Below, piece after piece: positions 19,035 through 55,029 of a stretch of 64,000 nt of DNA. The translations under genes and the position numbers were made by a program. Location of the stretch: contig JBAZMD010000001.1 of NCBI GenBank assembly GCA_041649955.1, positions 68,079 through 132,078 of the forward strand, given 5' to 3'. The notes under the pieces were generated by a model that made no database searches, was not told where the DNA came from, and worked only from the letters and a program-made list of their open reading frames with translations. The stretch's first letter is position 1. Each line of letters opens with the position of its first letter. This DNA comes from Patescibacteria group bacterium (GTDB taxonomy: Bacteria; Patescibacteriota; Patescibacteriia; UBA2591; JAQUPP01).

Positions 19035-19256
19035 ACTTTATATTATAATATATAATAATTAAAAAGCAAGCCCCACCACATGGAAATTATTGTTTTTCTG
19101 TAAAATTACGATTTAATAAGTATAAATTAAAAAAAATATTTTAGTTAGATATTTGAAATTATTAAGCATATAAAAAAACAAGAGAACAGTAATTTTAATA
19201 ATTTCCTTGTGGTGGGGCAAGCCTATTCTAACACATATTTTTATAGACGGGAAGAA

Positions 19257-20864
19257 CTACAAATTGCTATTTTTCTCTTGATAATATTTCGCTATATTGG
19301 CGCAATGAGTGGCTATTCCTCCCAGATTAACCAAAATATCATTAAAAATCGGGCCGTCGGCCGCATTGCATTCTCGGCGGTAAAATCTCTCCAAATGTTT
19401 TTCTTTTGCCGTAATTATCATTTCTTTTATTTTTTCATTATGTCTTAAAATTTTTTCCGCTAATTCTTGATTGGGCATTTCAATTAAAATAATCAAATCT
19501 TTAATGATTTTATCCAAAAATATTTTTATGTCTTCTATTTCTTGCTTGGCCGCTTTGGAAAATTTCACTTTGCATTGAATGCGATATTTGGCCAATTCAA
19601 CCAAATTTATAATATGATCGCCTATTCTTTCTATGTCGTCAACTATGCTTGAACATTGAATCAGTTGGGCGGCATTTTTTTGAGTTAATTTATTCTTGGG
19701 TATTTTATCTATAAAATTCATTACTTCTTTTTGAAGATTATCAATAACCAATTCCAAATAATTCAAATTTCTGTATCCCCTTTCGCTAAAAACGGAAATT
19801 ATTTTAAAAGCTCTTTTAAACATTTCTTCAGTTAACTGCACTCCTCTCTTCAATTCTTTTTGAACCGCTTCCAATGCCAGGGACGGTTCTTTTAAATATT
19901 GCTTGTCTAAAAATTCCGACCAAAGCGGCAATATTTTTTCCTGACCTGGAATTACTTTTTCCAATAATTTAGCAAATGGTTTTATTAAAAAAATAAACAA
20001 GCAGGCTACTAAAATACTGAAAAAGAAATGGCTGTTTACGATTTGTTGGGCAGTATTGCCGGTCAAATGTTTTATAAAATTGACATAATAATTAAGAAAC
20101 GGAAAAAGAAGAATAACAGTTATGGATTTAAAAAATATATTGGCAATGCCAGTTCTTCTAGCGTTTATTCCCCCTCCCAAACTGAATAAAAACGGTATTA
20201 TTGTCGCGCCGATATTGGCACCTAAAATTAAAGGCAAACCGACTTCAAGAGTTATCAAAGATTGCTGGCCTAAAAGAACAAGAATACTGGTGACAATTGA
20301 GCTGGATTGAATGAGAATTGTCGCCGCAATTCCGATTAATATGCCCAAAACAGGATTTTTTATGCTTTGAAAAAAATTTAAAAAATCTTGATTTCCTTTT
20401 AAAGGAATAATGACGTTGTTAATCAAATTCAGACCGAAAAAAATAAGACCGAAATAAAAAATTACCTTGCCGATGTTCTTGAGTTTTTCCGTAGGCGCGA
20501 CGAGCCAAAATATCATGCCGATAATCAAAAAAATCGGCGCGATATTCATAATATTGAAAGCAACCAATTGGGCAGTAAGAATCGTACCGATATTAGCGCC
20601 CAAAATTATACCCAATGAATTTTCAACACTGATAACTCCGGCGCTGACTAAACCAATGGTGATAAAAATAATCGTCGCACTGCATTGAAAAATTGCCGTG
20701 GAAACAGCGCCGAGCCCCATTCCGTAAATCGGTTTTTGTGACAAATATTTAATGTATTGGCGGATTCTGGAATTAAAAACCATTTGCATCCGATAACTTA
20801 ATCGGATCATGCCGAACAACACGAACATTAAGCCCGTTAAAAATAAAATAATTTCTTGAGCCAT
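19257..20864 (-). CDS. Na+/phosphate symporter (NptA family) with C-terminal PhoU-like domain
   Basis: 535 aa; multi-TM N-terminal half plus cytoplasmic helical PhoU-like half. Confidence 0.8.
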   Translation of the reverse strand: MAQEIILFLTGLMFVLFGMIRLSYRMQMVFNSRIRQYIKYLSQKPIYGMGLGAVSTAIFQCSATIIFITIGLVSAGVISVENSLGIILGANIGTILTAQLVAFNIMNIAPIFLIIGMIFWLVAPTEKLKNIGKVIFYFGLIFFGLNLINNVIIPLKGNQDFLNFFQSIKNPVLGILIGIAATILIQSSSIVTSILVLLGQQSLITLEVGLPLILGANIGATIIPFLFSLGGGINARRTGIANIFFKSITVILLFPFLNYYVNFIKHLTGNTAQQIVNSHFFFSILVACLFIFLIKPFAKLLEKVIPGQEKILPLWSEFLDKQYLKEPSLALEAVQKELKRGVQLTEEMFKRAFKIISVFSERGYRNLNYLELVIDNLQKEVMNFIDKIPKNKLTQKNAAQLIQCSSIVDDIERIGDHIINLVELAKYRIQCKVKFSKAAKQEIEDIKIFLDKIIKDLIILIEMPNQELAEKILRHNEKIKEMIITAKEKHLERFYRRECNAADGPIFNDILVNLGGIATHCANIAKYYQEKNSNL

Positions 20865-20872
20865 AAAAAAAT

Positions 20873-21265
20873 TTATATCTCCGGTTTTACAACAATATAT
20901 TTGCCGATCTTATCCAAAATATCGGTCAAATGAACATTAGATTTAATCAAATAATCCACTGCCCCGAGCGCCTTGCCCTTGGCCACTTCTTTATCCTGTC
21001 CGAGATTTGAAAGAATAACCACCGGAATCGTACTGCCTACCGGGTCATATCTTAATTTTTCCAAAACCTCGAAACCGTTCAATTTCGGCATTGAGAGATC
21101 AAGTAAAATAAGATCCGGTTTTTCTTTAATAGCCAAATTAAGCGCTCGTTCGCCGTCTTCGGCTTGAACCACATTGTAACCGGCACTTTCAATCATGCTG
21201 GCTAAAATACCGCGCATGTCCGGTTCGTCTTCGGCAATTAAAATTTTTTTAATTGTTTCTGCCAT
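20873..21265 (-). CDS. stand-alone response regulator receiver domain
   Basis: 130 aa CheY-like: DD pair, phospho-acceptor D in LILLDLSMP, conserved K. Confidence 0.8.
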   Translation of the reverse strand: MAETIKKILIAEDEPDMRGILASMIESAGYNVVQAEDGERALNLAIKEKPDLILLDLSMPKLNGFEVLEKLRYDPVGSTIPVVILSNLGQDKEVAKGKALGAVDYLIKSNVHLTDILDKIGKYIVVKPEI

Positions 21266-21296
21266 AATTTAAAATTAATTAATTAATTAATATATT

Positions 21297-28539: not shown

Positions 28540-28574
28540 AATAATAGCATATTTTTTGATTTTTGTCAACCCCT
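28540..28574 (-). promoter_or_regulatory. stereotyped promoter GGGGTTGACAAAAATCAAAAAATATGCTATTAT
   Basis: perfect -35, 17-nt A-rich spacer, TGn-extended -10. Confidence 0.6.
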
Positions 28575-30125: not shown

Positions 30126-30668
30126 CTAATTTTTAAGCGAAAATCTCCATTTTTTGTTTGCCCAATAAGGTCCGGCATAATCAATCCCAACTCTCTTAGT
30201 CGCAAAAATGCGGGATTTATTTATTTTTTCTCCTCTGTCTTCCAACCAAAATCTTTTGCTTTCAATAACATCTTCGCCGTAAAATGATTTGTCCAATTTT
30301 AAATATCTACAAAGTTTTCCCGGCCCGGAAGTTAAATTTTTTTCTTTAGAAGCTAGAGCGCGAATTAAAACGCATTCCGGCTTGCCTGATTTAGAAGTAG
30401 TGATATTCAATTGCCAATACATGCCATAAACCAAATAAATATAAATATGCCCGCCCTTGAAATATTCAGCAATATTTCGAGAAGTCATTCGATTGTTATA
30501 AGCATGGCAAGCTCTGTCTTTTGGGCCGACATAAGCTTCTGTTTCAATAATTTTTCCTTCTAATTTTTTATTGCCGATTTTTCTGACAATATATTTCCCC
30601 AATAATTCCTTGGCTACTTTTAAAGTCGGCCGAGTATAAAAATTTCTGGTTAATTTTTTTATTTTCAT
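30126..30668 (-). CDS. mpg: DNA-3-methyladenine glycosylase (Mpg/AAG family)
   Basis: 180 aa; ETEAYVGPKDRACHAY and GHIYIYLVYGMYW are Mpg signatures. Confidence 0.8.
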   Translation of the reverse strand: MKIKKLTRNFYTRPTLKVAKELLGKYIVRKIGNKKLEGKIIETEAYVGPKDRACHAYNNRMTSRNIAEYFKGGHIYIYLVYGMYWQLNITTSKSGKPECVLIRALASKEKNLTSGPGKLCRYLKLDKSFYGEDVIESKRFWLEDRGEKINKSRIFATKRVGIDYAGPYWANKKWRFSLKN

Positions 30669-30823
30669 CCCTCACCCTTCGACGATAATATTCGCCCTCG
30701 TATTTTCCAATTGCCTTTTATAAAATAAAAATAAATTTTCTTGAATCCAGATTAAACTGAATAAATTAGTAAAGACAGGCTCGTATTTGGAAAATAACAT
30801 CGTCGAAGGGTGAGGGATAAACT

Positions 30824-30881: not shown

Positions 30882-33800
30882 TTATTTCGCGGCTAAGAAT
30901 TTCGGCGTGACTAAATTCTCGGCAAAATCTGAAATTGTTCCGCCGTCAGAATAAGTTTCAGCCTTAGAAATAGTCATTACCGGCACTTTGCTGTAACCAT
31001 TGTTGGTTAAAGCTTTGGCGGATAATTTATATTTCTTGCCGTTCTGAATCAGATAAATCTGAGAAGTTCCCGTGTATTTAACCAATGTTCCATTAGGATG
31101 TTTAGTCGTGGAATCAATCGTATCGCCTAAAGGATAATTGAATTTGGATAATAAATCATCAGGCACCCAAGTCACCAATTTCCATTTCGGATCATTGAAA
31201 AGTTTCTGATAAATCGCTGAAGATTTAACCGGTCTCAATTTGCCGTCAGAAACCATGAATACTGCCGAAGCGCTTAAACCGTGAAGCGATGTAGTCTTGC
31301 CTCTGAATAATGAACCGTCGCGGAATGTCATTGCTACGCCTTCAGAATATTTCGCAAATTCTTCAGAAGTAACCTTCTTGACTGTTGAGAAATTGGATGG
31401 ATAACCCCAAGAGAGATAAACATTAAGATGCGGGAAAACGTGCGCCTTGCCGTCCAAAATCATATAAACCGCGCCTGGTTGAGCAGTACAAGTCGGACAA
31501 ATAACCAAATCTCTATTTTTGAGATTATAAGTTATAACTTCTGCTGTTTCTTCTGATTCAGAAATAATTATTGCTGAAATTATTGAAGAGAGATTAAAAG
31601 TCTTATCTCTGAAACGGATATAAACCACTTTTTCTCCCTTACCAACTGGTAGTAACCAAGAACGAGTAGCTTGATACGGTTCCCAATTAATACCGACAAA
31701 ATCAATCGTATTACTAATCATCATTTCCGCGGCATCAGTAGCAGTAATGTTTAAAGTAACATTTCTGGAAGTAGTTTTCGCGGCACCACTATTTATCTTT
31801 AAGGATAAATCTTTTGGACCAAGATTACCTGCATTGCCACCACCTCCTGAACTGCCACTCATTGGGGTCGAATCTCCGCCAGCAGTAACAAACTTTCCTC
31901 CGGTAATACCGCCAGGTGTAAAATGGTTTGTGGTAACAATTATAACATTATTAGTTGCATCGCGAACCACTGATTTATAATTTTCCCAAGTGTTTGTGGT
32001 GTCATCAAAATATTTTGGCGTAATATCAGCTTCAGTATATCCATAATCTGTAATTAAATCCGGATCATAAGGGAATGTAATCTTTACGTCATTATCAAAT
32101 TGAGTGATTTCTTGACCAGTAGAGTCCTTAGCCGTGAAATCATAGTTAACGCCAAGCGGTTTATCTTTAGCATCCGGTTTCACTGATACCGTAGTTTGAT
32201 TTTCATCACCAACAGTCGGCGTAATAGTTACGGTAACTGTGCCACTGCTGGCTAAAGCTCCGGCTGGAATTTCAAGCGTCAGACCATTTGTAAGTTCAAT
32301 AGTTTTACTGTCTGAAGCGTTGAAAGTCGTAGTTTTAGCTTCAGGAACGGCAAGACCTGTGGTAACAAGAGTTAAATTCTTAGTTTGAGCGCCTGCTACG
32401 GTTATAACTTCAGTCGCAGCGCTTTCATAAAGGACTCCATCAATTTTGGCCGTGGCCTTAACATACCATGTTTCACCGGACTTAACTTTTAAAGTATAAG
32501 TTCCGTCAGAAGCCATTGTACCGGTTCCCTTATCCTCAGACCAAGCTTGTATCATTGCTTGTTTTCTAACGCTGTCTAAAGTAACCTCACCGGTGATAGT
32601 GGCATCTGATAAACTGAATTGAAGATCCTTACCTGTTACATTGGAATCGCCAACCGTCACACTGAGTAATGGCGGGTTAATCAAATCTCTCGCATCCCAA
32701 GGAGGAATACCGGCACCAATTTTGAAAGTACCACTGGTAACATTTAAAGTATAAGTGCCGTCATTTCCGGTAAAAGTACCAACACCCAAACCGCCCGGAC
32801 CCTTAAAATCATTTTTGGTCGTTTCATCACCAAAGTCAGCATAGACCCAAACTCCACTCATACCAACATCATCCGGATCCGTGATTGTACCGCTGATTGT
32901 TTTATCAAGTTTTTTAAGTTGGAAATTACGAGTAGTTGTACTATCGGCAATAACGGTTGATTTTACGTCTTCGGCTACTATTTTGTATTTATCATTATCA
33001 TCTCCAAAATTCATCATCGGATCAATAAAAGCGTCAACGTACCAACTGCCTGCTGAAACTTTTAATGAATATTTATCATTAACACTGCTTGGAGCAAATT
33101 CTGTTTGCGACCAGCCGCCATTTTCTTTATCACCATTGATAAAAGCGCGAACTCCTGTCACAACCGTATCTGTTCCTGCAGTATAAGAACTATCGCTATT
33201 AGTATCAAGATAAAATTTACCTTCAATCGTAGCATTATTCGGTGCCACCACTAAATCAATTTCTTTACATCCGGTTGTTTCGTCAGTACAAGTATCGCTT
33301 TCACCAACAGTAACAGTTTTAGTTACGGTTAAAGTATATTTAGAACCCGGAGGCGTATTTAAACCTAATTCATAACTGCCGAGCGGAACTTTAATTTCAG
33401 TATAACCATTAGCTAATCCTCCGCCGGCAAAACCACCTTTATCCATACCTGCTCCCATTGCTCCGCCGCCACCGCTGCCGCCACCTACAGCTGTTCCACC
33501 ACTACCTGCATCGCCGCTTCCACCTGCCATCATTTTCGGATCACCGAAATCAATAAAATCATTTACTGTCGGATCCGTATCTTTAACCCAAACTCCACCC
33601 CAAATATCGGAAACACGATTACCGTCAGCATCCACTACATTTACTTTAAGCAGACCATCGGCTACCTTTAATAAAAAGTCATTATTATCAGAAGTTTGAT
33701 TGGCGGTTATTGTTACTTGTTGCGGACCACCTTGATAAATATATTGAGTTGACATTGGCATAATCATTACGCCCCAATTTCCTTCACTGACAGTTAAATC

Positions 33801-36800
33801 AAATCTGCCGGTATTAGAATCTGTTTGTGTATTAGCCCAGCCCGGTCCATTCATTTGCCAAGCATTAACCATCACACTGCCAATTGCATTACCGGCCGAA
33901 TCTGTAACCGTTCCTTTAATATGAGCATTCTTTGCTGTTAAAATAAGTGTGCCTGCGTCAGTTGTTTGTTCAGAAATAGCTTTGATTTTAACCGGAGTGG
34001 AACCGCCATAACTCTGACCTTGTTCGCCCCAGTTTGGATTAGCCACCAAATCATAAGTACCAGCTGGAACTTTAAAAGTAAAACGTCCATCAGAATCAGT
34101 ATTGGCACCATTGCCACCACCCATCATACCGCCGCTATTGGCCATTACCCAAGAATTGGCAATTGCCGTAGCACCGGTTGGATCTTTAACTAAACCTGTA
34201 ATAATAGCATTGGCCACTTGAACTTCAAAATCCAAACCAGCATCAAGTATAGTAGCGCCTCCCGGACAATTTCCCACTGTACCGCGGCATTCCGTGCTGC
34301 CATCTTCGGTAAAAGTAGTTCTCTTTGGAGATTCATTATAAACCCAATCAGGTTGACCCATGCTCCAATCAGGATTTACACTTAACCACCAGCCGCCGCC
34401 GGCAAGTTTTAAAGTATATTCACCACTTGAATTTGTTAATGTTTCAAAATGTCCACCTCCCATATCGCGATTAGCTTGAACGCGGGCATTAGCGACTAAT
34501 GCACCGCTGCCCTTTTTAGTCACTGTACCGGTTAAAGTTTTTGTTGGGACAGTTAAGGTAATTAAATTATTTGCCTGAGCCACATTGGCCACTTTAACTG
34601 TGCCTACGTCATCAGCAACATCAACGGTTAATCCGCTTGGTTGAATCCAAGCTTTTTCACCGCCCCAAGGCAAATTGATTTCCATGGATAATCCGGTGGC
34701 ATTGGTTAAACCGCCGATTCGGAAATAACCTTGATCATCAGTTGAAGCACCACCCTGATTTTGCCACATTTGATCATGAATCATAATCCAAGACCATTGG
34801 ACAGGTTGATCATCCGCAGTTCCGGCAACTTCATCCGCACCCGGATTCATTACTCTTCCGGTAACTTGCGGCGTACCAAGTATGAGTTTACCGCCGGTTC
34901 CATAAGTCACACCTAAATCTAAATTAGAAGTTCCGGCAGCTACGGCAGAGGAAATTGTAATATTAGAATATTTTTTTGTTGAATAATTACGATAAACAGC
35001 TTGTTCTTCAGGCGTCCCCCAACGTGGAGCTTCAATTTCTAAAGCATAAGTTCCTGCTGTCACACCACCAAAAGAGAATTGACCGTTCTGATTAGTGTTT
35101 GTGCCATACCAACCACCCGTAGTACCGCCTTGCATTGGTCCTTCAATATGGAAATTAATCCAAGCATTAGCCACAGTTGTAGTAGTATTTGGAATAACAA
35201 CCGTACCGCTAATATTCGGAGTGCTTAAAATTATATTTTTGGTTCTGCTTGATTGAGAACTGGTAACTGTAACATTCTGAACAAGTTTTCTCCCGCAAGT
35301 AATATTTCCGCAACCATTCCAAGGATTTGCTTCCACTTCATAAGTACCAATAGTCACACCGCCAATGGCATAATTTCCATTAGCATCTGTTTGTGACCAT
35401 TGAGAACCGGACATTGAACCTTGTGATCGCATATTAATACCAACATTAGTTGCACCGATATCAGGATAACCCACCGGATCATCGCATTCAGCTTGAGTCA
35501 CAGTTGAATTGTCGTCATGTTTCGGTTTGCAAACACGACCGGTTAAACCATTAACTGTCGGGTCGCTTAACAAAACAAGTAAACTATTATTAGCAATTGT
35601 CAAAGCAGTACCCGGATCTGATACCTCGGTAATAGTAGTTCCGGCAACACTTACTACCATGCCTTGCGGCGCAGCATAAAGACTGCCGTATTGAGTATTG
35701 ACATTAAAATTCCAGCTGCCCGTAGGAACATTTAAACTAAATGTTCCATCACTTTGAGCACTGGCGCCATAACAACTACCGGCTGATTGATAAGGACAAA
35801 AATCAATCCAAATTCCGCTTTGTCCGGTTGTACCGGTTGGATCTTTAACTACACCAGTAACATTGGGTGCTGATAAAGTAAATGCGTCATCATCAACGCT
35901 ATCAAGAGTGTCAGCTTGATCTTTTAAATCATTAGAAGTAGTTGAAGTAATGGAAACTGAAAAATTACCGCTGGCACAAGCACTGCCGCTCGCCGGTTGA
36001 ATTCGAAGATTATAAGTACCAAGTGCCACGCCACCAAGAGAAAAATTACCACTATCATCAGTATTTACACCATACCAAGAACCATCTTTATCCATATTTA
36101 TCCAAGCGACGGTTGTTACACCACCGCATTTTACTTTTCCAAAAACATTTGGCAAAGCAAAAGTTTTATTTCCCAAATCAGTAATTTGTCCATCCGTAAC
36201 ATCAATGGCAAATTCAGCAGTTCTTGTTCTTGGATAACTTCTAAAGTCGCCGCTGTATGGCGGCTCAATTTCTAAAATATAATGAGTACTGTCTGTCACT
36301 CCGCCAAAATAAACTATGCCATCAGCATCGGTCTGTGCCCATTGATTGTAAGACCAATCCATAGTATGAAGACCAATATTGGCATAAGGCACTGGCAAAC
36401 CAGGCTGAGGATTACTTGCCGTAGCAGTATCACCTAAAGTACCAGGAGCCTTAATCGTTACTTTAACATTTTGAGCGGATAAATTGATATTAATGCCGGT
36501 TGCAGTTTGACCTGAAGTTAAACATTGAGAAGTTCTAACGCTTTTATATTGTAAAACTCTGTCTTGATAATCTTTGGGTCTGGCTTCAATTTCATAACAT
36601 TGGCTGCTGGTATCATTTGGAACATAAAGTTTCCATGTTCCGTTTGGACCGGTTGTTGTTCTTTGCTCATAGTCCCAAGTATAAGGACGAGCAACCACTT
36701 CTACGCCTTCCAATAATGTTGCGCCACTGGGAGATTTAACCGTACCGGAAAGAGTGGCTGTTCTAAAAGCTTGGGTGGCTAGTGTTGCCACTGAACCCAC

Positions 36801-40479: not shown

Positions 40480-40507
40480 AATTGTCGATTTAGATCCGCC
40501 AACTGGC

Positions 40508-40657
40508 GGAGAAATAAATTTTCGCTACAATTTATGAGCACCCTGCTTCAAACCTCTAAACAAAATCAGTTCAAAGATAGCGTAAGCCGAAGGCGTTTCC
40601 ATGAATTAAATTAATTATTTTTTCACGAACCTTCTTCGGGTTTGGGGCGTGGGTCGC
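40508..40657 (+). repeat. intergenic repeat family A, copy 3
   Basis: Between two MTase genes; conserved gaaataaattttcgctac and ttcgggtttggggcgtgggt. Confidence 0.55.
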
Positions 40658-40669
40658 CATAAAATAATT

Positions 40670-41506
40670 TTAATTATATTTTTGAAGAATAAAATAAAAA
40701 TATTTTCTTTTTCCATTTTTAAATGAATTGCATAACTCTGAATCTTTAACTCCCGCGAATTGCTTGCCGAGATTTTGCAAAAATTTCGGCAAAAATTGCC
40801 TAACAAGTTTCATCCTTCTTTCATTATCCAAATTCAATGCCCTAAAAACATTTTCCGTTATATCTTCTTTTTTTATTATTTTCAATTTTGATTTATTAAT
40901 GGAGTCAAAAAAAGATTGAATTAATTCCCGGCTTCTGAAATCGGCGAATAAAAAATATCCTTTAGGTTTTAATATTCTTTTCGCTTCCTGTAAAAATTTA
41001 TTAAAATTAGGGTAAGAATGAGAAGATTCTATGTTTATCGCCGCGTCAAAACTTTCATCTTCAAAAGGAATTTTTATGGCGTTTCCGTATTCAAATTTTA
41101 AATTTTTTTCATAATGATGCTCTCTGTCAAATTTTATTTCTGCTTTGGAATTATCTATGCCGACGATCAGTTTGGGCTTGAAATATCTGGCAATGAAAGA
41201 AGTTCCGCCGCCCTTCCCGCATCCTACTTCTAAAACTTTTTTATCTTTTATATTAATAGAACTCACTACCTTATGATACAACTGGGCGCAATATCTGTTT
41301 TCTTCATCAATTTTTTCCAATCTTAATTTTTCCCGGTATTGATATCCGTAATTCAAAAAAATCACCTCTCCTTTTGAATCAATTTTTGAAAGATGATTAT
41401 ACCACTTATTCACCACTAAAGACTGGCCCTTAAGATAAATCTTGTTGACTAAATTAAAAAAATTTAATATCTTTATTAATTTTTTAATCCAATCTTTCTT
41501 CGTCAT
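40670..41506 (-). CDS. class I SAM-dependent methyltransferase
   Basis: 278 aa; motif I VLEVGCGKGGGTSF, LKPKGYFLFAD. Confidence 0.7.
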   Translation of the reverse strand: MTKKDWIKKLIKILNFFNLVNKIYLKGQSLVVNKWYNHLSKIDSKGEVIFLNYGYQYREKLRLEKIDEENRYCAQLYHKVVSSINIKDKKVLEVGCGKGGGTSFIARYFKPKLIVGIDNSKAEIKFDREHHYEKNLKFEYGNAIKIPFEDESFDAAINIESSHSYPNFNKFLQEAKRILKPKGYFLFADFRSRELIQSFFDSINKSKLKIIKKEDITENVFRALNLDNERRMKLVRQFLPKFLQNLGKQFAGVKDSELCNSFKNGKRKYFYFILQKYN

Positions 41507-41513
41507 ATATTTT

Positions 41514-42962
41514 TTATTTTCGCCCTCTTTTAATTATTATAACCTTCCCGTGTGTTGCGTCAACTTCTATCAAATCACCGTCTTTCAAAACCTTAGTGGC
41601 GATTTTGGTGCCGATAATACACGGCTTTCCCATTTCACGGGCAATGATAGCCGCATGACAAGTTAATCCGCCATCATTTGTAATTATTGCTTTAGTTTTT
41701 GAAATTGCCCCCATAAAATCTGGAGTTGTCATAAAAGTAACAAGAATTTCTCCTTTTTTCATTTTAGATATTTCGGCCGCATTTCTGATAATTCTAACTC
41801 TACCCTTAACATAACCGGCCGAGGCTGACACACCTTTAATAATCCGTATTAAAGAATCTTTAACAATTTTATTCTTGGGTATAAAAATTTTTATTTTTCC
41901 TTTATGTAATCTTATAAAATAATTATTGTTTCTTTTTTTAAGCTCGGGGGTGGAAATTAAAAGTTTTCCAATTTTTAAACTGGCAATTAATTCATCTGAA
42001 GTCAAATTAGTTAAATCAGTATAATCAACAGAAAGTCGCTTGCCAACTTCTGAAAAAAAGAATCTCATTAAGTATTCCGAGTTTTCTATGAAAGAAAGCA
42101 TTTCTGTTCTATAAAAAGACAGATTAGCTAAATCTTTAAATAATTTTTTTGTAATTTTATCAATTGCATATTTTTTATATAATGCCTTCTTGTCAGAAGC
42201 TAAATCAATTTTCATTTTGGGATAATTTTTTTTCTTTAGAGCAATTTTTATTTCCTCAATGGTGTCTATAATTGTAGGGTATTTATCAGTAGTAAAAAAG
42301 ACACAACCCATTCTCACATATTTTTGATGAAATTTATTTATTATTTTTTTTAGTCTTTTGGGGGAATTATCAATTATTTCATTCAATTTTCTATTAAACA
42401 ATTTTTGGTATTTCGCTCTTCTGATAAAATTAACGATTTTTTGCAAATCATCCTGCTTTTTTTCGATATAATTTTTTCTAGAGGACTGCATTAATATCCC
42501 AAATTCTTCATCTTCTTGTTTTTTATTAACAACTGATAGCAAATTTTTAGTAAGTGCATCAATGCTAAAATTTCCTGTATACACATAACCTATAAAACGC
42601 GCATAATAATCTGTCCAAGCTGTAAATAATTTTATCAATTTTCTATTTGAATACTTCTCTATTTTATAGGAGCTGACCTTTTTACTGAATTTATATAATT
42701 TCCTTCCATATTTTTTGTATTCAGCAAAAAGTTTTTTTAATTTACCATTTTTAATATTCTTCAATATTTCATGATGCGCAACCTCTATATCTTCTAACCC
42801 AAAATAAGCTTGAGCTTTAATCTGACTATTTATATATTTATAATCTTGGATTATCCTGCTATGCAAGGGTGTTTTAGAAACATAACCCGCTAAGGCGTAT
42901 TTAGTGGCTATATATCTGGGAAGCAGAGGTAGGGCCTTTTGTGTTGTAGCTATCCATTTCAT
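41514..42962 (-). CDS. PEP-utilizing-enzyme mobile (swivel phosphohistidine) domain protein with novel ~380-aa N-terminal region (P1)
   Basis: 482 aa; C-terminus ILVTFMTTPDFMGAISKTKAIITNDGGLTCHAAIIAREMGKPCIIG matches the PpsA/PPDK His domain; no ATP-grasp or TIM barrel. Confidence 0.75.
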   Translation of the reverse strand: MKWIATTQKALPLLPRYIATKYALAGYVSKTPLHSRIIQDYKYINSQIKAQAYFGLEDIEVAHHEILKNIKNGKLKKLFAEYKKYGRKLYKFSKKVSSYKIEKYSNRKLIKLFTAWTDYYARFIGYVYTGNFSIDALTKNLLSVVNKKQEDEEFGILMQSSRKNYIEKKQDDLQKIVNFIRRAKYQKLFNRKLNEIIDNSPKRLKKIINKFHQKYVRMGCVFFTTDKYPTIIDTIEEIKIALKKKNYPKMKIDLASDKKALYKKYAIDKITKKLFKDLANLSFYRTEMLSFIENSEYLMRFFFSEVGKRLSVDYTDLTNLTSDELIASLKIGKLLISTPELKKRNNNYFIRLHKGKIKIFIPKNKIVKDSLIRIIKGVSASAGYVKGRVRIIRNAAEISKMKKGEILVTFMTTPDFMGAISKTKAIITNDGGLTCHAAIIAREMGKPCIIGTKIATKVLKDGDLIEVDATHGKVIIIKRGRK

Positions 42963-42980
42963 AATTTAATTTTAAATTAT

Positions 42981-43925
42981 TTACAAAGTCGTAATCGGCC
43001 TACTTTGTACGATATAGAACTTTTTATTTTCCAAAGCCCACTCAATATCGCAGGGAAATTTATAATGTTTTTCAATTTGAGCGCACAATTTAGCCAATTC
43101 AATAATTTGTTTGTTGTTGAATTTTTGTTTAGCACGCAATTTATTCGGCACTTTTACCCATTCGCTGCCAATGCCTGATTTTTTCTGAACAATCATTTTT
43201 TCTTGCTCTGAAATATTAATATCAATAATTTTCCATGTTTTTTTATTAATCACATAACTGTCAGGCGTAATATGTCCGCCGACAATCGCCTCTCCCAAAC
43301 CCCAACCGGCTTCAATAATCAGCTGGTTTTTATCTTTTGTAACAGGATGAGTGGTAAAACAAATGCCTGAAATTTCCGATTGAATCATTTTCTGAATTAC
43401 CACGGCCACGGAAACTTTTGATTTTCTCATTCCTTGTTCCCGGCGATAAACAATTGCTCTTTGAGTAAAAAGCGAAGACCAGCAATCTTTAACTCGACCT
43501 AATAAATTCTGCCGAGTTGTATTGAGATAACTTTCCAGTTCTCCGGCCCATGAAGCGACTGACGAATCTTCGGCTGTCGCGCTGCTCCGAACCGCCACAT
43601 GTTTTGCTTTTAATTTATCAAAATCAATTAAAATTTCTTGCTGTAAATCTTTAGGCATTTTTGCGTCATGAATTAAATCGCGAATTAATTTTGATGCCTG
43701 ATCAACCGAATTAACATCTTTATAATTCACTTTATTTAAAGCCGATTCAATTTCAACATCTATATCAGTTTCTGTTAAAAATCTTTCAAAGGCATCAGCC
43801 AAAACCACAAATCCCGGCGGCACTTGAATTCCCGCTTGTGTCATTTCTCCCAACGACGCCCCCTTGCCTCCGGCAATTCCAACATCTTTTTTTGATAATT
43901 GTTTAAAATTTTTAGTAAATTTCAT
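42981..43925 (-). CDS. stand-alone PEP synthase/PPDK N-terminal ATP-binding (ATP-grasp, PPDK_N) domain protein
   Basis: 314 aa; AGGKGASLGEM, AVRSSATAEDSSVASWAG, AGWGLGEAIVGG, IEKHYKFPCDIEWA, YIVQSRP all parallel the E. coli PpsA N-terminal domain. Confidence 0.85.
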   Translation of the reverse strand: MKFTKNFKQLSKKDVGIAGGKGASLGEMTQAGIQVPPGFVVLADAFERFLTETDIDVEIESALNKVNYKDVNSVDQASKLIRDLIHDAKMPKDLQQEILIDFDKLKAKHVAVRSSATAEDSSVASWAGELESYLNTTRQNLLGRVKDCWSSLFTQRAIVYRREQGMRKSKVSVAVVIQKMIQSEISGICFTTHPVTKDKNQLIIEAGWGLGEAIVGGHITPDSYVINKKTWKIIDINISEQEKMIVQKKSGIGSEWVKVPNKLRAKQKFNNKQIIELAKLCAQIEKHYKFPCDIEWALENKKFYIVQSRPITTL

Positions 43926-43945
43926 ATATTTTTATTTTAATTTAT

Positions 43946-45397
43946 TTATTTATTTTTTAAAATTTTGACTAATCCATGATTTGCATTAACTTCCACCAAA
44001 TCACCGTCTTTCAAAACCTTAGTGGCAATTTTGGTGCCAACCAAGCACGGAATCCCTAATTCCCTTGAAACAATAGCCGCGTGGCAAGTTAATCCTCCTT
44101 CGTCGGTAATAACCGCCCCTGCTTTTTTTATTGCCACAATAAATTCAGGCGAAGTCATTGGGGCAACCAAAATTTCACCTTGCTTCATTTTATTTAGATT
44201 ACGGGGTGTTAATAATATTCTGACTCTTCCCTGAATTTTACCGCAACCGGCGCTGACAACCATACCATTTATTATCCCAGATTCTCTATTGACTTCCTTT
44301 TTCAAGAAAGGCCTGATTAAATTTATCTGTTTTTTCCCGCTCTTGAGAGTCAAAACATTTTTATAATAATGAATTAAGGCAAATTTTTTTCTATTTGCTA
44401 TTTCTTTAGAAGATACTTTTGCGCCATTTTTTAATAATTTGATAATTTCATTCGGCCAATAAAACATTAAATCGGAAAAATTAATTTTTTTTCTTCTGGA
44501 AATCTCTTTCAAGAATAAATCAACATAATGATTGGCGATAAAAATTTCTTTTTTCCTCGTATCCTGCCACCAGATTGAAGCCGAAAGCCTTTTAACTGTC
44601 TTAATGGTTTTTGCGTTAAGTTTATATTTTCTGAATAATTGATTTTTTTGAAAAATTATTTTTCTCGGCAAATTTTTGATTTCCTTTATTTTTTGATTAA
44701 CTTGCCTGATGCCTGATAATATTTTTTTAAAATACTCCGCTTTCAATTGTTTTTGTTCAAAATAACTGTTTCTAATCCAAAAATATCGTCGGATATGTTT
44801 TTCAATCAATTGATCAAATTTTTTTGTTCCCTGATATTTTTTTATTTCCAATAAATCCAATTCTTCTTTTTGATAAAAAGAAAGATTTTCCGGAGCGGCT
44901 AATTTTTCAAGGGCTGAAATAAATTCTTTTTGGTTGTCAATTTGCTTGGATAATTCTTCTTTTAAAATTTCTTCACCGCCCAAATTGGCAAGTTCCGGAA
45001 CTAATCCCACTCCCCAAAAATTTATATACAAATTGTGCCATTTATTGTAAGTATCGGCGAAGGCCTTATCAGTCAATAAACCGAGAGATTTTTCTGAAAT
45101 TTTCGTCTGGAAATTTTTTAATTTATTCAAGGCTTTTTTATAATCAGCTTGAACTTTTTTAAAATTTAAATCATTCAAAATCCATGTATTAAAATGTTTT
45201 CTTCCGGCTGTCCTGACATTTTTTTCATCGGAAATAAAAGTCATTTTATCTTTTGTAAAATAAAACAAAATCTCGGGCCAGTGATATTTGTAATAACGGG
45301 GCAAGTTCGTGGCAATCCCTATCATAAAATAGGATATATAAATCATTCTCCCGTCAATCGGTCCCCAAATCCAAAGTTTTTTTTGTGAATTAATCAT
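43946..45397 (-). CDS. PEP-utilizing-enzyme mobile domain protein, paralog P2
   Basis: 483 aa; C-terminus ILVAPMTSPEFIVAIKKAGAVITDEGGLTCHAAIVSRELGIPCLVG. Confidence 0.75.
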   Translation of the reverse strand: MINSQKKLWIWGPIDGRMIYISYFMIGIATNLPRYYKYHWPEILFYFTKDKMTFISDEKNVRTAGRKHFNTWILNDLNFKKVQADYKKALNKLKNFQTKISEKSLGLLTDKAFADTYNKWHNLYINFWGVGLVPELANLGGEEILKEELSKQIDNQKEFISALEKLAAPENLSFYQKEELDLLEIKKYQGTKKFDQLIEKHIRRYFWIRNSYFEQKQLKAEYFKKILSGIRQVNQKIKEIKNLPRKIIFQKNQLFRKYKLNAKTIKTVKRLSASIWWQDTRKKEIFIANHYVDLFLKEISRRKKINFSDLMFYWPNEIIKLLKNGAKVSSKEIANRKKFALIHYYKNVLTLKSGKKQINLIRPFLKKEVNRESGIINGMVVSAGCGKIQGRVRILLTPRNLNKMKQGEILVAPMTSPEFIVAIKKAGAVITDEGGLTCHAAIVSRELGIPCLVGTKIATKVLKDGDLVEVNANHGLVKILKNK

Positions 45398-46868
45398 TGT
45401 TTAAATGTTTTAAAATTTTAACAATTCCCCTGTTCGCATCCACCTCCACCAAATCCCCGTTACGTAATGTCCCTGTTAAACCGTGAATTCCTACTATACA
45501 AGGTGTTTTCAACTCTCGCGAAACAATGGCCGCATGAGAAGTGATACCACCCCTTTCGGTTAAAATCGCTTTTGCTTGCTTCATAAGAAAGATATAATCC
45601 GGCGTAGTGTGGGAGGCAACCAATATAGCTCCCTTTTTAAATTTAGAAAAATCTCTTTCTGATTTTATAATTAAAACTTGGCCGATAACGTTTCCAGGAT
45701 AAACGGCTGCCCCGCAAAGAACCTTTTTCTTTTCTTGGCGCAATAAAATTGATCTTATTTTCAGAGCTGACTCACCTTCTAATAATGAGTAATCTTTATC
45801 AATCCCCAAAAAGATAATGGTGGATTTTTGTCTTTTTTTAATAAGATTTAAAAAATTATTTTTATTTTTTAAATTTATCTGCAACTGCTCTTCCCAAGTT
45901 AACCATCTGAATTTTTCGTAATCCAGCGCATAATTTTTTGCCACTCTTTTAAGCCAAGTCTTAATGGGTATTGTTGTTTGTAAATTAAAAGCTTTTCTTT
46001 GGTCTCTTAATTTATACAGAATATCAAGAAAATTAATCAATTTTTTAATATTTTCAGGTTTTGTTTTTAAAATTTTTCTCTTCTTTTTTCTTTGTTTTTC
46101 CGAACATTTTATTTTTTCCCACTCATTTTTAAAATTCTGTGCCAAATCTATACCATGTTCTATAAATAAAATTTCTTTTGGCAAAGCGTGCGACTTAAAA
46201 TTTAAAAATACCCAACCCCATTTTTGAGCGTGAAAAATAATTTTTTTACTTAAAATCTCATATTTTGCCAAATCTCGTACTCCGCTTTTTAGCTTTTTAA
46301 ATTCTTCAGACGGCAAACTTTTAATCAATTCTAATAAATTTTTATGTTCTTCCATTACAAAAGAGTCCTGTAAGGGCGTCATCAGCAACATTAATTCTTT
46401 CTCGTCTTTAATGGTTTCTTTGATTTTTATTTCCAAATATTTTTCAACAGCTTCACAGGTATTCATTAATAAAGCCATCCACTTCTGAATAACTTCTACA
46501 AAATTCGTATATATTTTTTTGTCTATCTTTGCTGATTTTTCTAATCTATCAAGAGCTTGCCAATTTTTTTTCGTCAGATTAATAAATTCTTTTTCTAATT
46601 GAATTGGATTATTCTTATATTTCAAATAAAATACCTGGCCCAATTTTAATAATGATTTTTTATCCAAACAATAATAAAAAGAATCTTTGTCATAAATTTG
46701 AATTAATTTAGCGCAGATTCCAAACATTTTTTTCTGAAGAGTACAGCTTCTCTTAAAACCCAAGTCCGTCCACCAAAAAAAATCAGCGTCATATTTGCCG
46801 ATTTCAAGATCGTCTTTTATCTTTTTTATTTTATTGATAAAGCTAGACACAAGTTTCTTTTCGGACAT
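45390..46868 (-). CDS. PEP-utilizing-enzyme mobile domain protein, paralog P3
   Basis: 492 aa; C-terminus ILVASHTTPDYIFLMKQAKAILTERGGITSHAAIVSRELKTPCIVG. Confidence 0.75.
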   Translation of the reverse strand: MSEKKLVSSFINKIKKIKDDLEIGKYDADFFWWTDLGFKRSCTLQKKMFGICAKLIQIYDKDSFYYCLDKKSLLKLGQVFYLKYKNNPIQLEKEFINLTKKNWQALDRLEKSAKIDKKIYTNFVEVIQKWMALLMNTCEAVEKYLEIKIKETIKDEKELMLLMTPLQDSFVMEEHKNLLELIKSLPSEEFKKLKSGVRDLAKYEILSKKIIFHAQKWGWVFLNFKSHALPKEILFIEHGIDLAQNFKNEWEKIKCSEKQRKKKRKILKTKPENIKKLINFLDILYKLRDQRKAFNLQTTIPIKTWLKRVAKNYALDYEKFRWLTWEEQLQINLKNKNNFLNLIKKRQKSTIIFLGIDKDYSLLEGESALKIRSILLRQEKKKVLCGAAVYPGNVIGQVLIIKSERDFSKFKKGAILVASHTTPDYIFLMKQAKAILTERGGITSHAAIVSRELKTPCIVGIHGLTGTLRNGDLVEVDANRGIVKILKHLNND

Positions 46869-48127: not shown

Positions 48128-48183
48128 AAAAATACAAAGAGCGAGTCATCCCCAAAGGGGGCCCCTTGGGCTTGACTCGCTCT
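48128..48183 (-). terminator. nested GC-rich hairpin terminator (agagcgagtca...tgactcgctct around ccccaaagggggccccttgggc)
   Basis: 11-bp outer stem + inner palindrome, T-run on minus strand after RRM gene stop. Confidence 0.55.
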
Positions 48184-48210
48184 TTGCTAAACGAATTTAC
48201 GTTCTGTGGA

Positions 48211-48561
48211 CTAATTGTCCCGTCCGTATCCGCCTCTGCTTCCACCGCCGTATCCACCGCGGCTTCCGCCACCACCACCAAATCCTCTTCCACCACCGGT
48301 TCTTGGTCTTTCTTCTCTTGGTCTAGCTTCGCTGACCTTAAGATTGCGGCCGTCGATTGGTTGGTTGTTGAACATTTCAATGGCTTTTGCGGCTTCGTCT
48401 TCTGTGGACATTTCCACAAAACCGAATCCTTTGCTTCTACCGGAATATTTATCGGTAATAATACTCGCTGAGACAACTGTTCCGGCCTGGCCGAAAGTTT
48501 CTTTCAATTGATCGTCAGTGAGATTATATGATAAATTTCCGATGTAAAGTTTCTTTTCCAT
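48211..48561 (-). CDS. glycine-rich RNA-binding protein (RRM domain)
   Basis: 116 aa; RNP2 LYIGNL, RNP1 KGFGFVEM, C-terminal RGG/GGYGGG tail. Confidence 0.85.
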   Translation of the reverse strand: MEKKLYIGNLSYNLTDDQLKETFGQAGTVVSASIITDKYSGRSKGFGFVEMSTEDEAAKAIEMFNNQPIDGRNLKVSEARPREERPRTGGGRGFGGGGGSRGGYGGGSRGGYGRDN

Positions 48562-52983: not shown

Positions 52984-53001
52984 ATTTTATTTATTTGTTA
53001 A

Positions 53002-53238
53002 TTATTTAATTAATTCTGTTAATTTATCAAGTTTTTTATGAAACACGGAAACAATCTTGCCGAATTGATTGCTCGGAATAAGAATTATTGTTTCTGCCGG
53101 AGTCAAAAAAGCCACCAGCTTATCGCCGCTTTTTATTTTCAATTTTTTGCGGATTTCGGCCGGAACTACAATCTGTCCCCGTTCGCCGACTGTGGCGGTA
53201 TCAAAACAAATTATGCTTTCAAAAAAATCTTTTTTCAT
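53002..53238 (-). CDS. AbrB/MazE/SpoVT-family DNA-binding protein
   Basis: 78 aa; swapped-hairpin motif GQIVVPAEIRKKLKIKSGDKLV. Confidence 0.75.
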   Translation of the reverse strand: MKKDFFESIICFDTATVGERGQIVVPAEIRKKLKIKSGDKLVAFLTPAETIILIPSNQFGKIVSVFHKKLDKLTELIK

Positions 53239-53329
53239 AAATTTTTATATTAAATAATATGATTTATATGATACTTCATACAAATCATATTATAGCTAAT
53301 CTAAAATCTTCGTCAACCCCCACACCAAA

Positions 53330-53730
53330 CTTAGCGCTTGATTTACATATTATAAAAGTCGTAAGACGGAAGCCGCTTCGCTCTTATCTCTTCATATTAA
53401 AAAAGCCTTACGTTGAGTTGTGGTGTGGGGGTCAACCCCTCTGTGGACAAATTACAAATAACTCTAACAAAATAAATAGGGGTGAGAGAACTTGTCTCAC
53501 ACCCCCCTGGAGGATAACAGTGTATAAAGCTGTTATATCGATATTAGTGTTTTAAGGCGGTATTCCCCTATAATGGGACATGAGGACCTCCTATTTTTAG
53601 CAATTTAGGTAGCGCTCAAATTTGATCCCTTTCAGGATCTGGCTAGCGCTAAGCCATTGCTTTCATAAAAACCACCTCCTTTATATTATGATATAAACGA
53701 GTATATCACATTTTAAAATTTTGTCAACTC
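53330..53730 (-). ncRNA. candidate non-coding/leader transcription unit (promoter, two SD-preceded tiny ORFs MKAMA* and MSHYRGIPP*, multiple hairpins)
   Basis: minus strand: TTGACA-16-TATACT promoter at ~53712-53684, then AAGGAGGTG-8nt-ATG and ATAGGAGG-6nt-ATG; no ORF >10 aa on this strand. Confidence 0.3.
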
Positions 53731-53733
53731 TTT

Positions 53734-54135
53734 TTATTTAATTTTATCCACATTTCCATTGAGAATAATCGGTTTCATCGCTTCTATTTCATCCGTATAA
53801 TTCATTTTGGGAATCTGGTTTAATAAAAATATCTTTTTATTCAAGATATGCGCAAAAGCCATTTCTATCAAACTATTGCCGCCGATATAATTTTTAATAC
53901 CTTGCTTGTCTTTATTAATAACCAGTATCGCGTCGCACTTTTTTATTTCTTCAAAATATTCTTTAAAAACATCACCTTCAATTTTTGACCATTTATCTTC
54001 ATGATTAACTTCACCCTCGGCGTATTTTAAAATATCCTTTGGTGCAATCGCAATTAATCCTTTTGCTTCAAGGATTTTTTGAGTTTCCAATATTTCTTTT
54101 GAAAAGGCAATACTGCCGCAAATCGCAATTTTCAT
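53734..54135 (-). CDS. nucleoside 2-deoxyribosyltransferase-like (Rossmann-like) protein
   Basis: Start reassigned to MKIAICGSIAF (the ORF-track N-terminus translates a palindromic promoter region); ILVINKD...GGNSLIEMAFAH pattern. Confidence 0.45.
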   Translation of the reverse strand: MKIAICGSIAFSKEILETQKILEAKGLIAIAPKDILKYAEGEVNHEDKWSKIEGDVFKEYFEEIKKCDAILVINKDKQGIKNYIGGNSLIEMAFAHILNKKIFLLNQIPKMNYTDEIEAMKPIILNGNVDKIK

Positions 54136-54166
54136 ATTTTTAGTATAATATTTTTTAAAATTATGT

Positions 54167-54227
54167 CCACCCCACCACCAAGAAATTATACTTCGCGTTA
54201 AAAAAATATAATTTCTAGGTGGCGGGG
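54167..54227 (-). promoter_or_regulatory. palindromic operator-like site (ccaccccaccaccaagaaattata / tataatttctaggtggcgggg) overlapping promoter of 53734-54135
   Basis: ~21-bp inverted arms separated by 16 nt; -35 TTGACC and -10-like boxes within. Confidence 0.4.
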
Positions 54228-54281
54228 TCAATAAAAAAAATTGGGTGCAGACTAGTCAAACTAGTTCTGCACCCTGATATG

Positions 54282-54695
54282 TTATATACTCGCTATTTGG
54301 ATATTTAGCTCTTCCTGTTGTCTTCTTAGTGTGTCTCTAGCTTGAAAAACTAGAGAATTCTTATCTTCAATTCTAACCTTATTCAAAGATAAAGTTGAAG
54401 AGTTCTCAACAGAATTGACCGGTTTTACTATATTCACCTTTAGAATATTGAATTCGATTTTTCCAATCTCTTTTTTTACCGGTTTTACTAAAACCTGCGA
54501 AACTAATTCAACGGGCTGAGCAACGGTAGATAAATCATTATTACTTATCTCTATACTCATCGGCAATACTTCTGGCATTGTTGTTACCTTGCTTACAACC
54601 GGTGTAAATTTGTTTTCCAAATTTGTAGTAGAAGCATAAGCTCCTATGGCAGTAAACACAACAACAACTAACAGAATTTTTTGAAATTTATTCAT
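54282..54695 (-). CDS. secreted hypothetical protein
   Basis: 137 aa with N-terminal signal peptide; stereotyped promoter upstream at 54786-54818. Confidence 0.45.
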   Translation of the reverse strand: MNKFQKILLVVVVFTAIGAYASTTNLENKFTPVVSKVTTMPEVLPMSIEISNNDLSTVAQPVELVSQVLVKPVKKEIGKIEFNILKVNIVKPVNSVENSSTLSLNKVRIEDKNSLVFQARDTLRRQQEELNIQIASI

Positions 54696-55029
54696 TTAAG
54701 ACCTCCCGTCTTATTAGTTTTGCGAATCCTTTCTTTTTAGCCCGGATTCGCTTCGGCTATTTACAAAGAACTATTGTGTTATATATAATAGCATATTTTT
54801 GAATTTTGTCAACCCCCTCACATGTGGAAAACCATAAAGGGCATACTGTCTTTCGTTTTTTTATATATACACTGATTTTATCTTATCTATATGCTTATTT
54901 TTAACTTTATGCCTATTAAACTGTAATTTCCAAGAAAGACAATGGTTTTCCTTGTGAGGGGGCCAAGAGCAAATTTGGGGATAAATAAAAGGGGCGATTT
55001 CTCGCCCCCCGTTTAAATACTTACTATTC

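Follow-up and report, generated by a model that had tools for sequence, protein, structure and literature searches.

We propose that a group of long-range inverted repeats with 5'-CCC(C)...(G)GGG-3' termini, found in a 64,000-nucleotide stretch of DNA from a Patescibacteria group bacterium (GCA_041649955.1, contig JBAZMD010000001.1, positions 68,079 to 132,078; the whole stretch is called the window), are non-autonomous transposable elements of a narrow Patescibacteria lineage that resemble MITEs (miniature inverted-repeat transposable elements), a reading to which we give a probability of roughly 0.7. They are best read as a new MITE-like family or set of related families, a familiar kind of element and not a new regulatory system, since the units match the definition of a MITE, are present or absent as wholes at orthologous sites and have a copy at a second locus. 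Whole units have been gained or lost, with presence and absence in both directions between relatives, their targets are duplicated, a related copy lies at a second locus, decay proceeds by internal deletion, loss can be exact and one interior is inverted. These observations bear out one of the origins offered by the original prediction for five such repeats, namely the terminal inverted repeats (TIRs) of small MITEs.

Inverted repeats of the window

All coordinates are whole-window positions, and features are read in the sense of the genes, along the minus strand, except where another strand is named. The window is AT-rich (G+C ~35%) and nearly all of its genes lie on the minus strand. All five predicted pairs of inverted arms are real and lie at the coordinates first given or only a few bases away, and the extra bases first assigned to the arms of element A (aagcaag / caagcc) and to element E (gtcaa) are flanking direct repeats.

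Element A (type 1), 19071-19217, minus strand: 147 bp, CCCCACCACAAGGAAATTATT...AATAATTTCCATGTGGTGGGG; arms 19071-19091 and 19197-19217, 21 nt with 1 mismatch, loop 105 nt
Element B (type 4), 30669-30816, minus strand: 148 bp, CCCTCACCCTTCGACGAT...ATCGTCGAAGGGTGAGGG; arms 30669-30692 and 30793-30816, 24 nt, loop 100 nt
Element C (type 3), 53317-53431, minus strand: 115 bp, CCCCCACACCACAAC...GTTTGGTGTGGGGG; arms 53317-53329 and 53419-53431, loop 89 nt
Element D (type 1), 54170-54227, minus strand: 58 bp; arms 54170-54190 and 54207-54227, 21 nt, loop 16 nt
Element E (type 2), 54813-54962, minus strand: 150 bp, CCCCCTCACAAGGAAAACCAT...ATGGTTTTCCACATGTGAGGGGG; arms 54813-54835 and 54941-54962, with a 1-nt/3-nt internal loop 10 bp in from the end

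The arms are not random. When the window was scanned for CCC...GGG inverted repeats (arm of at least 12, at most 2 mismatches, loop of 3-260), five loci were found, where 200 local shuffles averaged 0.68 and never exceeded 4, and the same type of scan in the reverse polarity, GGG...CCC, gave only 2 matches. The motif GGGGNTGAC occurs 6 times against 0.59 expected, and the units fold much better than their shuffles (z -4.8 to -9.1). Prokaryotic MITEs have been described as AT-rich, intergenic elements of less than 500 bp that carry TIRs but no transposase, with direct repeats flanking young copies (PMC10969869, PMC11602168). Set beside limits of at least ~10-15 bp for TIRs and of less than 500 bp (50-800 bp in prokaryotes) for size, the arms measure 13-24 nt with at most 2 mismatches, and the units 58-150 bp in the window and 72-278 bp in relatives. 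The interiors have a G+C of 8-35% (15% in A, which is without an open reading frame (ORF)), and no ORF of 40 aa or more lies inside any element, as expected of MITEs.

The arms were sorted into the following types, which extend to contigs described below.

Type 1, 5' arm CCCCACCAC(C/A)nnGAAATTAT: A, D and the copies El1 and El2, with a related variant arm, CCCCCCACATGGGGATTATT, in the unit at L098 2400
Type 2, 5' arm CCCCCTCACAAGGAAAACCAT: E
Type 3, 5' arm CCCCCACACCACAAC: C
Type 4, 5' arm CCCTCACCCT...: B and L004 8780
Type 5, 5' arm CCCCGTTAGA...: L091 5293 (source genome), L002/L093 and L035/L098/L099

The claim that the arms are mutually related stands in part: those of A and D are identical at 18 of 20 positions and those of E and C have the terminus CCCC[A/T]CAC in common, while B shares only CCCTCAC with E. 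Type-5 and type-4 arms were found repeatedly in several genomes, and types 1-3 carry a conserved irregularity ~10-11 bp from the hairpin base. An interior common to the five window units was sought by alignment and blastn-short and rejected, as only the arms could be related; D, El1 and El2 do have a common interior. The source genome holds ~6 full copies and 3 relics of five arm types, most with unrelated interiors, in ~82 kb (window, L091, L110), and the density of elements is ~1 copy per 12-14 kb.

Presence and absence at orthologous sites

Five related genomes, metagenome-assembled genomes (MAGs) labelled 'Patescibacteria group bacterium', were found through neighbouring proteins: GCA_028717225 (L002, L099), JGI Ga0376277_0000367 (L035, L096), Ga0265297 (L049), GCA_028713475 (L093) and GCA_028716665 (L098). 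They share 80-95% DNA identity with the window and ~75% at four-fold sites (73-78%); a further contig, L001, is 100% identical to the window and thereby uninformative as a relative.

Comparison for presence or absence of whole units, as the original prediction had advised, revealed polymorphism at the A, C, 55886 and histidine-kinase/response-regulator (HK/RR) sites. Element A fills its site in the window, and the orthologous site is empty in L002 and L096, where the rpsU promoter is intact without it. Element C is present in the window, L035 and L099, and its site is empty in L049 and L098, both of which have the promoter of the AbrB operon; the empty site of L049 (...cacagaGGGGTTGACgaaaat...) is identical to the two flanks of the window joined. 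Conversely, an 80-bp type-5 unit (CCCCGTTAGAAGTT...AACTTCTAACGGGG) lies between the histidine-kinase and response-regulator genes in L002 and L093 and is missing in the window and L096. Element E is present in L035, L049, L098 and L099.

A 140-bp unit at L098 2400-2539 is homologous to A over its whole length and occupies another locus, namely the promoter that serves the orthologue of the plus-strand gene 55991-56473. Over 102 nt the interiors alone share 73.5% identity (E 2e-12), scoring 51.8 bits where no shuffle exceeded 32.8. At this site the window carries a remnant.

Truncated A-type element, 55858-55895, plus strand: right arm CCCCATATGGGG (55884-55895) and ~25 nt of interior, 2 nt before the -35 box TTGACA (55898) of gene 55991-56473

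A truncated A-type remnant is also found at this site in L035 and L049; the site is full in L098 (tttttatccaCTTGAg[...]CTTGAcaaaaatcg) and empty in L099 (tttttatccaCTTGAcaaaaatcg), where the promoter is present without an element. What was first noted here as a compact version of the repeats, 'ccccatatgggg', is actually the right arm that, with adjoining interior, survives from an A-type element; L098 has this element at full length. Presence and absence together with related copies at non-orthologous sites are the mobility expected of MITEs. Furthermore, relatives in which the A, C or 55886 site is empty have the same promoters in intact form; the elements thus arrive at existing promoters instead of bringing them along, and the suggestion that the MITEs carry promoters finds no support at these sites.

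Landing sites and target duplications

Elements A, C, D and E lie between an upstream terminator and a -35 box, with the GGGG end touching the -35 box, whereas the 3' arm of B abuts the ATG (30668) of the methylpurine-DNA glycosylase (MPG) gene. The arms had been said both to bracket promoters and to abut the -35 box. The former is incorrect, as the promoters start just outside the 3' arm of A, C, D and E and B stands at an ATG; the latter is true of those four and not of B.

rpsU promoter, 19069-19042, minus strand: TTGCTT (19069-19064), 16-nt spacer, TATAAT (19047-19042); ATG at 19034
Upstream duplication copy of A, 19218-19221, minus strand: CTTG (plus strand caag)
Downstream duplication copy of A, 19070-19067, minus strand: CTTG, overlapping the rpsU TTGCTT (19069-19064)
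C-adjacent promoter, 53316-53289, minus strand: TTGACG-16-TATAAT, AbrB-like/HlyD/MacB operon, 11/12 consensus matches
Upstream direct repeat of C, 53431-53439, minus strand: GGGGTTGAC, its first G being the last G of the element on the plus strand
Downstream direct repeat of C, 53320-53312, minus strand: GGGGTTGAC, including the -35 box of the 53316-53289 promoter
Older arm-like relic, 53436-53451, minus strand: TTTGTCCACAGAGGGG, upstream of the C repeat and resembling the E 3' arm TTTTCCACATGTGAGGGGG
D-adjacent promoter, 54169-54142, minus strand: TGGACA-16-TATACT, -35 box 54169-54164
E-adjacent promoter, 54812-54785, minus strand: TTGACA-16-TATTAT, abutting the 3' end of E
Solo arm-like relic, 5451-5466, minus strand: GTTTTCCACAAGGGG, 2 nt before the -35 box TTGACT (5448) and resembling the E 3' arm
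Separate canonical terminators, 55010-54989, 54281-54232 and 30860-30828: upstream of E, D and B

The rpsU promoter was read by eye and was not flagged by the consensus scan, its -35 box matching at 3/6 positions.

Three pairs of empty and filled sites display a duplicated short target, which is CTTG for A, TTGA(C) for C and CTTGA for L098-2400, in keeping with the direct repeats of 2-10 bp that flank MITEs. For A, the empty site ggtaTTGcttttt (...ggtaTTGcttttttaatt...; ggtaTTGcttt) pairs with the filled site ...aggCTTG[A]CTTGctttttaatt... (aggCTTG[element]CTTGcttttt); for C, GGGGTTGACgaa pairs with GGGGTTGAC[C]GGGGTTGACgaa; and for the 55886 site, atccaCTTGAcaaaa pairs with atccaCTTGAg[...]CTTGAcaaaa. 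The left flank is TTGA at C, D/El2 (at D directly after the T-run of the terminator), El1, L035-8473 and E in L098, TTGG at E in the window and CTTG(A) at A and L098-2400, and the right flank of promoter-proximal copies is the -35 box. In L004, TATG/TATG flanks two units, and a start codon lies in the right-hand copy. The left copy plays no part in a promoter and is therefore best taken for a target-site duplication. In 7 independent cases the target sequence equals the first bases of a sigma-70-type -35 hexamer, and the duplication therefore rebuilds the -35 box while the G-rich end of the element becomes positions -36 to ~-56. An extension of the hairpin by G.U pairs was considered for the TTGA/TTGA and TATG/TATG flanks and rejected, as TCAA, which would be the perfect complement, never occurs on the left and the CTTG/CTTG of A is unable to pair.

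The 9-nt repeat GGGGTTGAC occurs at three sites, namely C in the window, the type-5 unit at L035 8473 and E in L098, the left flank of E reading GGGGGTTGA in L098 and GGGGTTGG in L049. Insertion next to the G-rich end that an earlier copy left as it decayed may explain these longer repeats; relic arms are found upstream of C (53436-53451), at 5451-5466 and, in L049 and L098, upstream of E (CCCCAAA..GGGG).

Decay of the elements can be followed at the D junction, where L035, L099 and L049 carry full-length type-1 copies of 133-135 bp, El1 and El2. An extra 135-aa gene has one of the two on its promoter, and the promoter after that has the other. Element D matches the first ~40 and the last ~20 nt of an El element (~135 bp) and is therefore an internal-deletion derivative; the extra gene is gone from the window. 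In L049, El1 is a different deletion derivative of 72 bp. The interior of El1 is inverted at the same site between L035/L099 and L049/L098, and the mismatch at position 11 of the type-1 arm is T.G in El1 and C.A in El2, so that neither strand is fixed, which favours an element acting at the level of DNA. The routes of decay are thus internal deletion (D, the 55886 remnant and the 72-bp L049 copy), clean loss between repeats (C in L049) and inversion of the interior (El1).

In the mechanism that we envisage, a trans-acting transposase or recombinase would recognise the arms and cut the target with a stagger of 4-5 nt, preferring (C/T)TTGA. Alternatively, it may be selection in a compact genome that retains only those insertions that spare the promoter. 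An effect on transcription, through insulation, an altered upstream-element region or a hairpin in read-through RNA, would be a putative by-product; cruciform or RNA-hairpin effects are possible consequences and do not explain the distribution. A bolder version of the mechanism, which we offer tentatively and on balance doubt, has the elements home to the -35 hexamer with (C/T)TTGA(C) as target, preferably beside the G-run of an earlier copy, so that each insertion would split and then rebuild the -35 box and cycles of insertion and decay would have written the 'GGGG-TTGACA' architecture.

Points that weigh against a MITE-like family

Several observations sit poorly with the MITE-like family that we favour. 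Pfam found no transposase, integrase or HUH domain among 40 window proteins, and the gene tables for ~300 kb of the lineage's DNA list no such domain and no autonomous parent, a search of limited reach. There were no single arms, or arms more than 300 bp apart, other than in a composite of El1, gene and El2, and a search for long-range (up to 4 kb) CCC...GGG inverted repeats yielded nothing beyond this composite. A metagenome scan with the type-1 arm pattern returned 53 stretches within the limits of the sample, of which 2 are real, both from this lineage, and 51 are chance matches in unrelated coding DNA. The length of the flanking repeat is variable (2 nt (GT) at the HK/RR site, mostly 4-5 and 9 at three sites), and B and its L004 relative lack a duplication. 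Copies with common termini, type-5 copies included, mostly have unrelated interiors, which is unusual for a MITE family; the interior homology of A to El1, at 25.6 bits, is within the shuffle range, and E and C are each single-copy in the sampled DNA. Finally, gain cannot be told from clean loss with these genomes because they are about equally distant. Relic MITE families without a parent are known, and a missing parent does not therefore exclude membership. As to a possible source, IS1380 and ISH3, insertion-sequence families of the ISfinder classification with duplications of 4-5 bp and ends starting with C, are candidate leads only. Three pattern scans of viral contigs gave chance single matches only, and a search of the paper library turned up no description of such repeats for Patescibacteria.

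Alternative explanations

A site-specific (tyrosine or serine) recombinase, instead of a transposase, might move the units as small integrative modules. Their circular junction, ...GGGG-TTGA-CCCC..., would present two inverted half-sites round a 4-nt overlap and would recombine with a chromosomal core, GGGG-TTGA-C, at promoters, leaving the core on both sides. This would account for the 9-nt direct repeat GGGGTTGAC that three insertions, independent of one another, have in common (C in the window, the type-5 unit at L035 8473 and, as GGGGGTTGA, E in L098), for the 7/8 variant GGGGTTGG flanking E in L049, for a variable length of flanking identity reminiscent of an att core, for the frequency of solo promoters with GGGGTTGACA and for the exact loss of C in L049. 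However, sites without GGGG are also used (A, ggtaTTG; L098-2400, atccaCTTGA; El1/El2, a T-run and then TTGA), the intercistronic type-5 copies are flanked only by TTAA/TGAA or TTCA/TAAA, no recombinase gene was seen in the sampled DNA, and the upstream GGGG is explained equally by re-insertion beside an older decayed end, as in the relics at 53436-53451 and upstream of E. We consider such modules unlikely.

We think it just as unlikely that the units are functional cis-acting hairpins under selection, such as insulators, RNase III sites, mRNA stabilisers or stems that sequester a ribosome binding site (RBS), to which the mobile pattern would be secondary. The folding scores against shuffles (z -3.4 to -9.1) agree with a hairpin, and the copies between cistrons (L002 7531, L091 5293) would be transcribed, the L091 copy retaining its pairing on the sense strand through two G.U pairs. 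Yet A, C, D and E lie downstream of canonical terminators and upstream of the -35 box, where little transcription is expected, and the same promoters lack the element in close relatives. Covariation of the arms as RNA, which the original prediction had proposed to look for, did not emerge: there is neither compensatory change, the inner helix of E included, nor wobble that is consistent by strand (El1/El2, L093 A.C, L049 C.A). The same points, no compensatory change in orthologous copies and no fixed strand for wobble or mismatch, argue against an RNA gene, and a known RNA family was rejected because Rfam 15 at the gathering threshold gave tRNA-Gln only, E-value scans adding sub-threshold miRNA-hairpin noise on D. 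Between orthologues, C and E have an identity of 92-97%, and special purifying selection on the loops was at first suggested by values of 97% for C and 92-94% for E against four-fold identities of 73-78%; this claim was withdrawn, as intergenic DNA in general reaches 80-96% identity in those comparisons, and the conservation of C and E is not special.

The 3' arm of the type-4 units, to which element B belongs, AAGG(G/T)GAGGG-ATG, resembles a Shine-Dalgarno (SD) sequence and the 5' arm an anti-SD sequence in two genomes with two mirrored changes, the second arm pair being at L004 8780-8913, where it abuts the parB ATG; mirrored changes are equally expected of TIRs bound by one protein. Judging from these arms, B may be an RBS-sequestering hairpin outside the family, of which its membership is uncertain. 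It is absent from L002, L096 and L093, a comparison confounded by decay of the glycosylase gene there too. Only the window has a whole MPG gene; L002, L096 and L093 retain a few tens of bases of it, and L093 has a Band_7 gene at the MPG site.

Still less probable are REPIN-like or IS200/IS605-type elements, mobilised as single-stranded hairpins by an HUH/Y1 transposase and inserted 3' of the tetranucleotide TTGA. The long hairpins with their irregularity ~10-11 bp from the base in types 1-3, the left flank that is almost always TTGA and the combination of conserved termini with a variable remainder all suit such elements. Nevertheless, the arms are not palindromic and lack the 5' GTAG/GTGG head of REPs, the ends have no subterminal hairpins, the empty/filled pairs display a real target duplication, which HUH elements do not make, and no Y1_Tnp match or RAYT was found in the sampled genes, which cover parts of genomes.

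The regulatory origins of the original prediction fare worst, and we regard paired operator half-sites bound by a transcription factor that loops DNA, or promoter elements that form cruciforms, as highly improbable. The arms do touch the -35 box, the 20-nt arm is near-identical in A and D at two unrelated promoters, and GGGG before the -35 box is strongly enriched. Against this, there are at least five unrelated arm types, loops range from 16 to ~250 nt without helical phasing, the rpsU and AbrB-operon promoters occur without an element in relatives of 88-95% identity, copies are found at stop codons, between cistrons and at start codons, and the flanking target duplications would have no role. 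Intrinsic terminators, with which each repeat might have been explained away, are dismissed by loops of 16-105 nt, the lack of a T-run after the arms and the separate canonical terminators upstream of B, D and E.

Other features of the window and its relatives

The strong promoters of the window have features of their own. Those at 28569, 25372, 54812, 55555 and 57063 (minus strand) and at 55898 (plus strand) are stereotyped including the spacer, with TTGACAAAAATCAAAAAATATGCTATAAT and an extended -10 TG. GGG(G) lies directly before the -35 box at ~8 of ~21 strong window promoters, solo promoters with GGGGTTGACA are common, and the promoters at 28569, 25372 and 57063 have ATA-GGGG only and no recognisable arm. 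On the minus strand, rpsU (19034-19047) and a 134-aa gene at 53734-54138 (54136-54147) start 6-7 nt past their -10 boxes, which implies that their mRNAs are leaderless or near-leaderless.

The AbrB/MazE-like, HlyD-like and MacB-type ABC genes are preceded by a small transcription unit (53440-53733, minus strand). Its parts are a promoter, TTGACA-16-TATACT (53727-53700), a terminator at ~53510-53478 and two tiny ORFs, each preceded by an SD sequence, MKAMA* (53666-53649) and MSHYRGIPP* (53581-53552). The equivalent position of L035 has a single tiny ORF, MLLKGIPP*, and the conserved ...GIPP-stop suggests a leader-peptide attenuator of the efflux operon. Long G/C-rich palindromes around CCCCAAAGGGG/CCCCTTTGGGG lie 3' of genes at 48135-48186 of the window, after the RRM-domain gene 48211-48561, and at L091 13973-14047; these look like elaborate terminators outside the CCCC...GGGG family. 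Purely AT-rich inverted or tandem repeats of AAAATGxAAAATG type lie beside rpsU/yqeY at L093 11600-11720 and L003 6750-6862, the L093 repeat occupying the position of element A of the window.

Whole promoter-gene-terminator cassettes vary among relatives at element junctions (L035 7440-7847 and 8660-9292; L093 3063-3689; window 30126-30668), and in L035 a 210-aa gene follows the type-5 element. A region of ~6.4 kb (40481-46867), which encodes a methyltransferase, a PPDK_N (ATP-binding) protein and three paralogues with the PEP-utilisers mobile domain, is missing at the syntenic position of L035/L036. Two giant genes, at 10987-18165 (2392 aa) and 30882-37808 (2308 aa), have products with a membrane segment at the N-terminus, for which the gene tables of relatives list pilin-like/Big_5 matches for one and CarboxypepD_reg-type matches for the other; both, typical surface giants of the Candidate Phyla Radiation (CPR), directly precede junctions that bear elements or swap cassettes.

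Implications

Little mobile DNA is generally expected in the small genomes of the CPR, and turnover of these elements between genomes that are ~90% identical represents an ongoing flux on a small scale. The elements coincide with junctions at which strains differ by whole cassettes. If homing to the -35 box were true, the regions upstream of promoters in a streamlined CPR genome would owe their form to a selfish hairpin element, and this element would mark the junctions of cassette swaps between strains (gene X, the 210-aa gene and the MPG/Band_7 site). Were the landing a real choice of target, it would be an unusual route by which a transposon inserts without silencing a gene. The exact landing at the -35 box is also separate evidence, drawn from comparison of genomes, for where promoters lie in an uncultured lineage. 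Annotation calls for caution, as the hairpins are open to misreading as regulatory sites, sRNA genes or terminators.

Comparison with known systems

Precise excision of the Tn10/Tn5 type, by replication slippage, resembles the loss of C in L049 exactly between 9-bp direct repeats at the foot of a hairpin, and D resembles a deletion between TATAA microhomologies within a palindrome; this is a host replication process, however, and accounts for losses only, not for origin or spread. Integron attC sites are likewise imperfect inverted repeats (57-141 bp) with conserved ends and structure, a variable centre and a place at cassette-varying junctions. Here, in contrast, the outermost pairs are CCCC/GGGG with no RYYYAAC/GTTRRRY core, the TTGA...TTGA flanks are direct and not inverted, neighbouring genes have their own consensus promoter and terminator, Pfam scans found no integrase/IntI, and at A, C and the 55886 site it is the element by itself, without a gene, that is gained or lost. 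REP/REPIN (RAYT) sequences also form intergenic hairpin-forming doublets of inverted repeats with conserved arms and variable spacers, often after genes, but their units are imperfect palindromes with a GTAG/GTGG head and make no target duplication, and neither feature is found in the window elements. Generic MITEs (RUP, ERIC, MITEAba12, Nezha) are alike in size, TIRs, direct repeats, AT-rich non-coding interior and intergenic site, and also in hairpin-forming transcripts and dependence on a transposase in trans; the window elements differ from them in having no identified parent insertion sequence, arm subtypes that share only the CCCC terminus and a strong bias to the -35 box.

In behaviour the window elements are most like the Correia elements of Neisseria. 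Correia elements (CREE/NEMIS) are non-autonomous, measure 100-155 bp with TIRs of ~26 bp and lie mostly just upstream of genes; their duplicated target joins a promoter hexamer, their interior is invertible and their hairpin can be transcribed (see also PMC10969869). They differ in duplicating TA, in supplying -10/-35 boxes from their own ends, in having hundreds of near-identical copies and in carrying an IHF site. The window elements, for their part, are few and have mostly unrelated interiors, duplicate 4-5 bp (TTGA, CTTG(A)) and regenerate a pre-existing -35 box instead of supplying the promoter themselves.

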